Assembly (NCBI RefSeq): GCF_011045215.1
Contig: NZ_CP049201.1
DNA length: 64,000 nucleotides
From: Escherichia coli
GTDB lineage: Bacteria; Pseudomonadota; Gammaproteobacteria; Enterobacterales; Enterobacteriaceae
Reading direction: 5' to 3' (one strand)
This document shows positions 40,197 to 43,140 of this stretch, in pieces (position 1 is the stretch's first letter; each line of letters begins with the position of its first letter). The notes under the pieces are model-generated. The model was not told where the DNA came from. It was given only the letters and a program-made list of their open reading frames with translations, and searched no databases. The position numbers were made by a program, and so were the translations under genes.

Positions 40197-40204
40197 TGTG
40201 GATC
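40197..40204. repeat. Target-site duplication TGTGGATC, left copy
   Basis: Identical 8 bp directly outside both inverted-repeat ends of the IS66-family element. Confidence 0.75.
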
Positions 40205-40241
40205 GTAAGCGTACAGCGAGGGCCGTATTGACGGGGATGTG

Positions 40242-41780
40242 TTATTCAGCTGGCAGTGCTATGCGCCACGGAAGCAGTTCGCTGACCCGGTTGACCGGCC
40301 AGTCTGCTATGACGCCAAGCACATGGCGAAGGTAGCTTTCTGGATCCACGTCATTCAGTTTGCACGTCCCGATCAGGCTGTACAGTAGCGCTCCCCGCTC
40401 ACCACCATGGTCAGAGCCGAAGAACAGGAAGTTTTTACGACCCAGACTGACCGCCCGCAGGGCATTTTCAGCGATGTTGTTGTCGATTTCCACCCAGCCA
40501 TCGTTCGCATAGTACGTCAGTGCCGGCCACTGGTTAAGTGCGTACGCGAACGCCTTCGCCAACTCTGAGTGTCGCGACAGGGTCTTCATCTTTTCACGCA
40601 ACCAGCTTTCCAGGGATTTCAACAACGGTTTCGTTTTTCGCTGACGTTCAGCAAGCCGCTGCTCTGCCGGCATTCCCCTTATATCCGCCTCTATGGCGTA
40701 CAACTGACCGATCTGCTCCAGGGCTTCTTCCGTCAGTGCTGACGGGATGCGGACGTGCACATCGTGGATCTTTCGGCGGGCATGAGCCCAGCAGGCAGCT
40801 TCCGTTATCCCACCATTGCGATACAGCTCGTTGAACCCGGCGTACGCATCCGCTTGCAGCACACCGCTGAAGCAGGCAAGATGAGTCTGCGGATGGATGC
40901 CTTTTCTGTCCGGGCTGTAAGCGAACCACACTGCAGGTGCCAACGCTGACCCGGCATTGCGGTCATCACGAACATACGCCCACAACCGCCCGGTCTTCGT
41001 CTTCTTATTACCCGGCAGCAGTACCTGGACCGGGGTATCATCGGCATGGAGTTTGCCGTCAGTCATGACATAGCCATGAAGCGCCTCTTCCAGCGGAGAC
41101 AGCAGCCGGCAGCATGCATCCACCCAGCCCGACAGCAGTGAACGCCTCAGCTCCACACCTTGCCGGCCGTATATTTCTGACTGGCGATACAGCGGGGTGT
41201 GCTCTGCATACTTCGAGGTCAGCACGCGGGCCAGCAGCCCCGGTCCGGCGATACCCCGCTCGATGGGCCGCGAAGGTGCAGGTGCCTGCACGATGGCATC
41301 GCACTGAGTACAGGTATGTTTTTCCCGTACCGTCCGGATAACCCGGAAGGCGCTACGCATCAACTCCAGCTGTTCGGCGGTATCCTCGCCCAGATAGCTC
41401 AGTGAACCGCCGCAGTTCGGGCAGCACGGCGCCGCAGGCAACAGTCGCTTTTCGTCACGGGGTAGTGATTCAGGGAACGGCTTACGGGTGCGGGTCTGAC
41501 GCAACGGACGCTGTACTGCCGGGTCATACACCCTACCAGTCAGCGTATCGCTCTCTTTCTGAAGCCGGTTCAGATCGGCTTCCATTTGTGCGATACGGCG
41601 GGAGACTTTTTCGGAACGACTGCCGAAGTTCATCCGGCGGAGTTTATCCAGCTGCGCCTGCAGATGGTCTATTTCGCGCTCCCGGTTGCTCAGCTTTTCC
41701 TGCAGGGCGTGGATCAGCGCTTCCTGTTCGGCCAGGCGCTGTTTCAGCAGGAAGATGTCGTCAGAAGAGATGTCGTTCAT
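40242..41780 (-). CDS. IS66-family transposase
   Basis: 512 aa with N-terminal coiled coil, CxxC zinc ribbon (CPNCGG) and DDE region typical of IS66 transposases. Confidence 0.85.
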
Positions 41781-41829
41781 AAGCCCGTATTTTACCGGGC
41801 TTATTCTGTGACAACCAGGATAAAGAGAT

Positions 41830-42177
41830 TTACAGCATGGTCAGGGAGGTCAGCAGCCGCTTAGGCTGTCGCCAGTCGATACCTTCCAGCAGCATCGCCA
41901 GCTGCGCCTGCGTAAGGAACACTTTGCCATCACGGGCTGACGGCCAGGCGAAGCGCCCACGCTCCAGCCGTTTGGTCAGGAGGCACAGCCCGTCACCGGT
42001 GGACCACAGCAGTTTAACCTGACTGCCGCTGCGGCCCCGGAAAATGAAAACATGGCCGGACATGGGATCGTCTTTCAGCGCCGTCTGTACTTTCGCAGCC
42101 AGGCCGTTGAAGCCATTTCTCATATCGGTGATACCGGCAACCAGCCAAATTTTGGTCCCGGAAGGTAACGGGATCAT
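41830..42177 (-). CDS. IS66 accessory protein Orf2
   Basis: 115 aa with IS66 Orf2 motifs ([25 protein letters not shown]). Confidence 0.8.
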
Positions 42178-42575
42178 CGCTTCAGTTCCTGTATCAGCAG
42201 AGTCAGGAGCTTTTCGCTGACATTGCCATTGAAGCGGAGCGTCCCGTGCCGGAACGTTACCTCACAGCTGATACTGAGGGTTTCCGGGTCCTCTGCGAGC
42301 GATTCTGGCTGTTCGGCAGCGGCATCGAGAGTCACAGGAAGTAGCTGGGGGCTCTCTGAAGAAGGTAATAGCAGCTTTCCCTCGCGCCATTGTTGTCGCC
42401 ATTTGAACAACAGATTGGCGTTAATGCCATTTTCAAGAGCAAGTTTTGAGATGGATATCCCGGGTTCACAGGAGGCAGCAACGAGCTGCTGTTTAAATTC
42501 GGGAGGATAATTAGGGCAGCCTTTTCGCCTGCCGGGAGTCACATTTTTCTGCATATCTGATACTTTGGTTCCCAC
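42174..42575 (-). CDS. IS66 accessory protein Orf1
   Basis: ~130 aa, HTH-like; overlaps Orf2 start as usual in IS66 elements. Confidence 0.75.
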   Translation of the reverse strand: MGTKVSDMQKNVTPGRRKGCPNYPPEFKQQLVAASCEPGISISKLALENGINANLLFKWRQQWREGKLLLPSSESPQLLPVTLDAAAEQPESLAEDPETLSISCEVTFRHGTLRFNGNVSEKLLTLLIQELKR

Positions 42576-42646
42576 TACTTATTTGGTGGACACCACTTTG
42601 TCTAATTCGTCAGATTCTGACCAGACGGTTCAGGCTGTACGCTTAC

Positions 42647-42654
42647 TGTGGATC
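42647..42654. repeat. Target-site duplication TGTGGATC, right copy
   Basis: Identical to 40197-40204. Confidence 0.75.
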
Positions 42655-43140
42655 CTGGTTCCAGGCATATTCAAATACCTGACAGGAAATATTTTTCCTG
42701 TGGTCGGGCTAATCTGTTAGCACCAGTGATATATAAGACGGTCAAAGATCGTGGCGTTGACACGACATTAGGTTATCAGGCGGTTCGCAATTTCATGGAA
42801 CCTGTAAATGGGTTGTCACGCTATCGGACCAGGAAGGGATGAATAATTAGTATCAGTACAGTAATTACAAAAGTGTCTTCATGCCGACTAAAAAGTTTCC
42901 TTTCTTTTTCCATGCAATTAGCGTGATGTTTGCATGAAAAAGCGTTGGTAATTAATGAATAAGTATTTTCAGGATGATCAGTATCTCTGAAATGAACTTC
43001 ACCTGTTTACATGTGAACAAAAAAGCAACTCATAATATTGCCGTCTTTTGTTTTTCCATTTTTTGATATACTTGTTTTTGATTTTTGTCTAATTTTTGCT
43101 TTTTTGTTTGTACGGTTAAAAATGCTGCTTAATGCAAATT

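Follow-up and report, generated by a model that had tools for sequence, protein, structure and literature searches.

An ISEc8 insertion beside a Pap-like fimbrial operon of Escherichia coli occupies a beta-glucuronidase relic and not papI

Whether an insertion sequence (IS) has deprived a Pap-like fimbrial operon of its co-regulator papI is the question raised by a 64,000-nt stretch of Escherichia coli DNA (assembly GCF_011045215.1, contig NZ_CP049201.1), referred to here as the window. An IS66-family element lies upstream of the operon, and a sequence-only reading of the window had placed it where papI would be expected and regarded it as a simple, probably recent transposition. The analysis described here identifies the element as a known IS located in a pseudogene relic that adjoins, but lies outside, the conserved fimbrial control region, which is an ordinary finding.

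The element and its parts are arranged as follows.

40197-40204: left copy of the 8-bp target-site duplication, TGTGGATC
40205-42646, minus strand: ISEc8 (IS66 family), complete, 2442 bp, recognized from terminal repeats, Pfam domains and nucleotide match
40205-40226: terminal inverted repeat at the tnpC end, pairing with 42625-42646
40242-41780, minus strand: tnpC, a DDE transposase of 512 amino acids (aa), with DDE_Tnp_IS66 (2.1e-106), zf-IS66, LZ_Tnp_IS66 and IS66_C domains in Pfam
41830-42177, minus strand: tnpB, a 115-aa IS66 accessory protein (Pfam TnpB_IS66, 1e-38)
42174-42575, minus strand: tnpA, a 133-aa open reading frame (ORF; Pfam HTH_Tnp_1, 2e-12)
42625-42646: terminal inverted repeat at the tnpA end
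42647-42654: right copy of the target-site duplication, TGTGGATC

The terminal inverted repeats extend over 22 nt with 82% complementarity, their outer 13 nt (GTAAGCGTACAGC) being perfect, and TGTGGATC is an exact 8-bp duplication that directly flanks both ends. All three ORFs are uninterrupted on the minus strand; tnpC is full-length without internal stops, and an ATGA read from the sequence at 42174-42177 combines the tnpB start with the tnpA stop (the PGAP version of tnpA in E. coli C5 has 126 aa). Boundaries, domains and ORFs therefore agree with the initial description of an intact 2442-bp IS66-family element with 13-bp perfect inverted repeats and an 8-bp direct repeat. The nucleotide identity to ISEc8 copies of O157:H7 and many other E. 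coli is 99.5-99.7% over 2442 bp, the label ISEc8 resting on this comparison with PGAP-annotated elements. A TnpC-type DDE transposase, overlapping tnpA and tnpB, terminal inverted repeats with an 8-bp duplication and near-identity to ISEc8 are all features of IS66-family membership, and the window element is a known, common IS. Its 2442-bp length and 8-bp duplication also agree with the features of ISEc8 and the IS66 family.

The sequence interrupted by ISEc8 was rebuilt by deleting the element together with one copy of the duplication, a reconstruction in which the sequence-only reading had hoped to recognize a disrupted ORF. The rebuilt minus strand yields a single tblastn alignment to residues 403-495 of K-12 UidA (42.6% identity, E 2.4e-11), which runs from 42741 to 40019 across the rebuilt junction and includes two in-frame stops. 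Beta-glucuronidases likewise rank first (1e-12) when the translation of the rebuilt region is compared with PDB by phmmer. The relic is divided by the insertion into two halves.

40019-40204, minus strand: distal half of the GH2 relic (UidA about 436-495; tblastn with K-12 UidA, PDB phmmer 1e-12)
42655-42741, minus strand: proximal half of the GH2 relic (UidA about 403-435; same junction-crossing alignment)
Junction of the occupied site: GCTGTACGCTTAC+TGTGGATCCTGG

The duplicated octamer TGTGGATC codes for 'DPQ' of this relic, which retains about 93 of about 600 codons and thus shows GH2 homology without a complete ORF. Because the rebuilt sequence matches UidA 403-495 with two stops, the disrupted 'ORF' is a GH2 fragment; the target of ISEc8 is a dead, stop-riddled beta-glucuronidase fragment and not papI, and no papI ORF emerges from the reconstruction. 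The relic, which is detectable by PDB phmmer and UidA tblastn only (six-frame Pfam missed GH2), is situated between an EAL-domain gene and the Pap-like fimbrial operon, and ISEc8 lies 326 bp beyond the EAL stop codon. A core of about 45 nt within 42713-42762 (CCAGTGATATATAAGACGGTCAAAGATCGTGGCGTTGACA) recurs at about 90% identity in about 60 plasmids of E. coli; on C3 plasmid A, for instance, it is flanked by repB and a colicin Ia pseudogene. As this core coincides with the conserved '..HPSVVMWS..' stretch of the GH2 relic, its plasmid copies are probably another scrap of a similar gene.

Four alleles free of the IS carry a single TGTGGATC, namely those of E. coli RM8082, the C5 chromosome, 52F4 and a metagenome contig (L030). 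The rebuilt site matches the RM8082 allele (L001) at 99.5% over 201 bp around the insertion point and the C5 chromosome and 52F4 at about 94%, and the left flank of L030 is 99.8% identical over 6.3 kb. No PapI ORF is annotated in the interval in RM8082, the C5 chromosome or 52F4. Comparison with IS-free loci, which the sequence-only reading had put forward as a check, thus yields four alleles that are similarly without papI at this place.

Additional information comes from ten relatives of the operon (L017-L026), which share an identical PapH-like protein and whose operons appear complete. They match 42713-43700 at 98-99% and nothing leftward, the homology breaking exactly at 42713 in all ten. 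Because the relatives share sequence only from 42713 rightward, ISEc8, whose right duplication ends at 42654, is located 58 bp outside the conserved regulatory block. In the one relative examined leftward (L019), a decayed IS3-family element lies within this GH2 relic, and the DNA there matches multicopy genes for IS3-family transposases at 92% identity. The insertion points of two unrelated IS elements are thus less than 60 bp apart, and the DNA around these sites is evidently not needed by the operon. A 72-aa minus-strand ORF upstream of papB in the relatives (starting MTKNTRFSPEVRQRA in L019) was considered as a divergent papI and rejected, being a decayed IS3-family orfA. An EAL-domain (cyclic di-GMP phosphodiesterase-like) gene at 38976-39878 is present upstream in all alleles sharing the left flank of the window and absent from the IS3-type relatives. 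Among GTDB representatives, a search with the PapJ-like protein returned no related loci, and an exact-pattern scan found nothing.

The conserved block contains the elements of a Pap-type GATC switch.

42713-43291, plus strand: conserved upstream block, AT-rich, without an ORF above 64 aa, holding the switch (98-99% in L017-L026)
43143-43148, plus strand: distal GATC box (ACGATC), with GATC at 43145
43247-43252, minus strand: proximal GATC box (ACGATC), with GATC at 43247

The two boxes are in inverted orientation with a spacing of 102 bp, and the pattern ACGATC-N98-GATCGT occurs once in the 64-kb window and in none of 100 shuffles; the pair is kept in 13 fetched loci. A 102-bp GATC spacing together with a PapI-like protein has been described as the signature of the Pap-type switch (PMC2909390). 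The window locus has the GATC pair, PapB as the first gene and a PapI-like protein of its own, and a divergent papI is absent. The distal GATC at 43145 lies 499 bp from the end of ISEc8, which matches the distance of about 500 bp estimated earlier. In canonical pap, the papI-papB intergenic region measures 330 bp (PMC11316696), and this layout predicts a divergent papI at about 42730-42960, to the right of ISEc8. The DNA of that stretch has not been disrupted, is shared at 98-99% with IS-free relatives and is non-coding in every allele, so that the proposed placement of the IS at the expected site of papI is not supported. The earlier failure to find a PapI-like ORF between the IS and the switch is borne out by the ORF list, Pfam and tblastn alike: the longest minus-strand ORF in 42655-43291 has 30 aa, no FaeA/PapI signal was obtained from six-frame Pfam searches at E<=10 on the rebuilt region or from tblastn with PapI-family queries, and an intact papI was looked for within 42655-43140 and not found. 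The regulatory region showed no similarity to pap, sfa or foc loci in a distant DNA search against 5426 E. coli genomes, and Rfam gave no matches in 38500-55000.

Two of the IS-free alleles vary within the switch. In L030 (6796-6900, equivalent to 43165-43266 of the window), exactly 102 bp are missing between 10-nt direct repeats, TTTGTTATTT, which follow each GATC box, and one box of the distal type is kept; this loss could be natural, producing a phase-locked variant, or could result from collapse of the assembly, whose coverage is about 8. In RM8082 (L001:10170-10375, equivalent to 43190-43215), 18 extra bases, corresponding to two more TTTTTTGTG units, lie between the boxes and the GATC spacing is 120 bp, compared with 102 bp in the window; the fimbrial operon of this strain is truncated after papB.

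A candidate for the co-regulator is found at the opposite end of the operon.

53807-54022, plus strand: FaeA/PapI/PefI-family regulator, 71 aa, intact (Pfam FaeA score 40.4 bits, cut-off 20.7)

Its only two PDB matches are Salmonella PefI (2jt1, E 3.4e-5) and PapI (2htj, E 1.7e-3), and it keeps two motifs seen in the PefI/PapI alignments, Y-x-A-R-Y-Y-L and W-[YF]-L. PGAP gives an identical gene on C5 plasmid A the name 'FaeA/PapI family transcriptional regulator'. Public assemblies contain the identical protein in 405 indexed blocks, and the gene occupies the same operon 3' end on the same strand in 20 of the 20 loci shown (L007-L026). A papI-type gene is therefore not missing, since the locus encodes a PapI/PefI homologue; together with the GH2 identity of the rebuilt target, this contradicts the loss of papI implied by the sequence-only reading. 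In Salmonella, pefI is located downstream of pefBACDorf5orf6, and a FaeA/PapI gene likewise follows K88-like fimbrial genes on an S. Gallinarum plasmid. The pef genes have been named as the operons pefBACDorf5orf6 and pefI-srgC, with pefI belonging to the separate pefI-srgC operon (PMC6844306). Directly upstream of the PapI/PefI-like gene lies a conserved ORF of 89-96 aa (53480-53770) without a family or structural match, which has a 30%-identical paralogue (E 2.4e-8) 4.5 kb downstream at 58294-58554. As a second PapI-like gene, this ORF (96 aa in the window) was rejected for want of Pfam or PDB support.

The explanation that very probably accounts for the locus as a whole builds on direct observations: the IS anatomy, the target identity, the IS-free alleles, and a 3' regulator whose existence, family affiliation and conserved place are established. 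ISEc8 would have transposed by the standard IS66-family route, making an 8-bp target duplication, and would have landed in a decayed beta-glucuronidase fragment between the EAL gene and the Pap-like operon, outside the conserved block. The operon would never have held a divergent papI at the position of ISEc8; instead, a PapI-type protein encoded on the same strand at the operon 3' end (53807-54022), an arrangement like that of pefI in Salmonella pef, would work in trans, together with Lrp and Dam, at the pair of ACGATC boxes with their 102-bp spacing. We infer that the 3' protein operates the GATC switch. The switch itself is most likely unaffected by ISEc8, because 499 bp separate the element from the distal GATC box, and the insertion is probably neutral. 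Because a PapI/PefI-type regulator is kept at the far end of the operon, ISEc8 did not destroy papI and the finding is ordinary.

The insertion can be dated only in relative terms. On plasmid A of E. coli C5, ISEc8 agrees with the window copy in site, orientation and duplication, and this plasmid is the sole carrier of the shared insertion among 5426 complete E. coli genomes and PLSDB plasmids. Because this identical insertion is common to both, it is older than the separation of the window and C5 plasmid A carriers. The two ISEc8 copies differ at 25 positions, 22 of which fall within a 150-bp segment of tnpC (40771-40920), a patch that suggests gene conversion from another IS66-family copy. 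Of the original description as 'simple, probably recent', the first half is upheld by the 8-bp duplications and the fit to empty sites; the second is not sustained, given the relative dating, the sharing with C5 plasmid A and the 150-bp patch, and the insertion is simple and not necessarily very recent. As for the surroundings, positions 1-25854 (gsp type II secretion genes, YfjI and others) are 94-95% identical to complete E. coli chromosomes, and positions 25854-64000 (38 kb) are 99% identical to the 214-kb plasmid of the bovine strain E. coli C5. The window, which contains no tRNA gene, belongs to a replicon other than C5 plasmid A. Because the left 25 kb are chromosome-like at 94-95% and the right 38 kb plasmid-like at 99%, the fimbrial island seems to have been exchanged between a plasmid and a chromosome, the latter that of a divergent Escherichia lineage.

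Several points weigh against this explanation. PefI, the closest solved relative of the 3' regulator, is reported to be a repressor (PMC12388093), so that the 3' protein may act as an activator or as a repressor, and an effect of the IS on transcription, through an outward promoter or an altered H-NS or upstream context, is possible. Furthermore, the IS-free alleles from complete genomes (RM8082, the C5 chromosome and 52F4) have truncated fimbrial operons and L030 is without 102 bp of the switch, so no IS-free allele combining the exact left flank with a fully intact operon occurs among the alleles seen.

A more elaborate claim, which appears unlikely, extends the proposed role of the 3' protein: a PefI-like protein made from the operon's 3' end would run the GATC switch, read-through in the ON state would feed back on it in a circuit unlike that of a divergent papI promoter, and ISEc8 might also modulate the switching frequency. 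More improbable still is that the insertion is not neutral and that ISEc8 alters fimbrial expression, by read-out from its tnpA end towards papB or by shifting upstream silencing or activating DNA by 2.4 kb, or else affects the EAL gene. The distance of merely 58 bp to the conserved block and the retention of the insertion in two diverged carriers would fit such an effect. However, the ISEc8 genes face away from papB, the relatives tolerate wholly different DNA left of 42713, and the element lies 326 bp past the EAL stop codon. A consensus scan of 42500-43800, which covers only the last approximately 150 bp of ISEc8, also revealed no plus-strand promoter-like site. Such scans carry little information here, the counts for promoters and terminators being at or below shuffle expectation.

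The idea that ISEc8 destroyed or displaced an ancestral divergent papI and left the switch without a co-regulator has very little probability left. It draws on the absence of a PapI-like ORF between ISEc8 and the switch and on the location of the element on the side occupied by papI in canonical pap; it is already contradicted by the GH2 relic in the rebuilt target, the four IS-free alleles without papI, the intact pap-layout position to the right of ISEc8 and the PapI/PefI homologue at the 3' end. The least probable alternative, in which the fimbrial island was moved by a composite transposon having ISEc8 as one arm, or by recombination that left ISEc8 as a scar, appeals to an island (25854-64000) that looks chromosomal here and is plasmid-borne in C5 and to other IS66-family elements elsewhere in related records, but it is already contradicted because the window holds a single ISEc8 copy, whose matching 8-bp duplications and exact fit of both flanks to empty sites denote a simple insertion without rearrangement.

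The remainder of the operon is a pi-group, Pap-like cluster.

43292-43603, plus strand: papB-family regulator, the first gene of the operon (Pfam PapB, 6.1e-28)
43714-53483, plus strand: fimbrial structural and assembly genes (major subunit, PapH-like protein, usher, chaperone, PapJ, two minor subunits and putative adhesins)

The tip-adhesin position (50579-53483) is taken up by three ORFs in tandem, each of about 310-319 aa, that encode putative adhesins. A weak MrpH_C match is seen only in the first; most relatives have a truncated third ORF of 201-214 aa, and one (L023) has a different, single 335-aa ORF of the MrpH_C type. On the 3' side of the regulator (54177-57149) follow genes for a polysaccharide deacetylase, a GT4 glycosyltransferase and a VirK/DUF535 protein and then an AraC-type regulator, a set conserved with the operon in all relatives. 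This set may constitute a co-inherited surface-modification module.

These results remove a false lead, as no IS-mediated loss of a fimbrial co-regulator has taken place. They also indicate that an uncommon Pap-like operon of bovine-associated Escherichia has a pef-style layout with a distal PapI-family gene; for annotators, the upstream region alone is insufficient to infer that papI is missing. If it were true that the IS altered switching, the locus would be a further example of IS-driven regulatory variation, an already well-known theme.

In comparison with known systems, ISEc8 of O157:H7 and many Enterobacteriaceae has the same tnpA-tnpB-tnpC order, ATGA overlap and GTAAGCG... inverted repeats, and the window copy differs from known copies in its insertion site alone. 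In K88 (fae), a 1994 study by Huisman et al. reportedly describes a Pap-type operon whose regulatory gene region contains IS1 copies that affect expression, whereas ISEc8 of the window lies outside the conserved block. Canonical pap, in which papI diverges from papBAHCDJKEFG, shares with the window locus the gene order B-A-H-C-D-J-minor subunits-adhesin and two inverted ACGATC boxes 102 bp apart; the window locus differs in lacking a divergent papI and in having three putative adhesin ORFs. The lack of an upstream papI has already been described for Pix and PL (plf) fimbriae, which are also pi-group clusters with a PapB-type regulator (PMC12388093; bioRxiv 10.1101/2021.07.20.453171); however, these are reported without any PapI equivalent, and the window locus has one at its 3' end. 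Salmonella pef resembles the window locus in having a PapB-family gene first, GATC/Dam/Lrp-type control upstream and a PapI-family gene after the structural genes on the same strand, PefI being the best solved relative of the 71-aa protein. Nevertheless, the identity between the two proteins is low, no srg or rck genes follow in the window, and its structural genes are Pap-like (PapH-like, PapJ, several minor subunits and putative tip adhesins), in contrast to the kappa-type Pef set.

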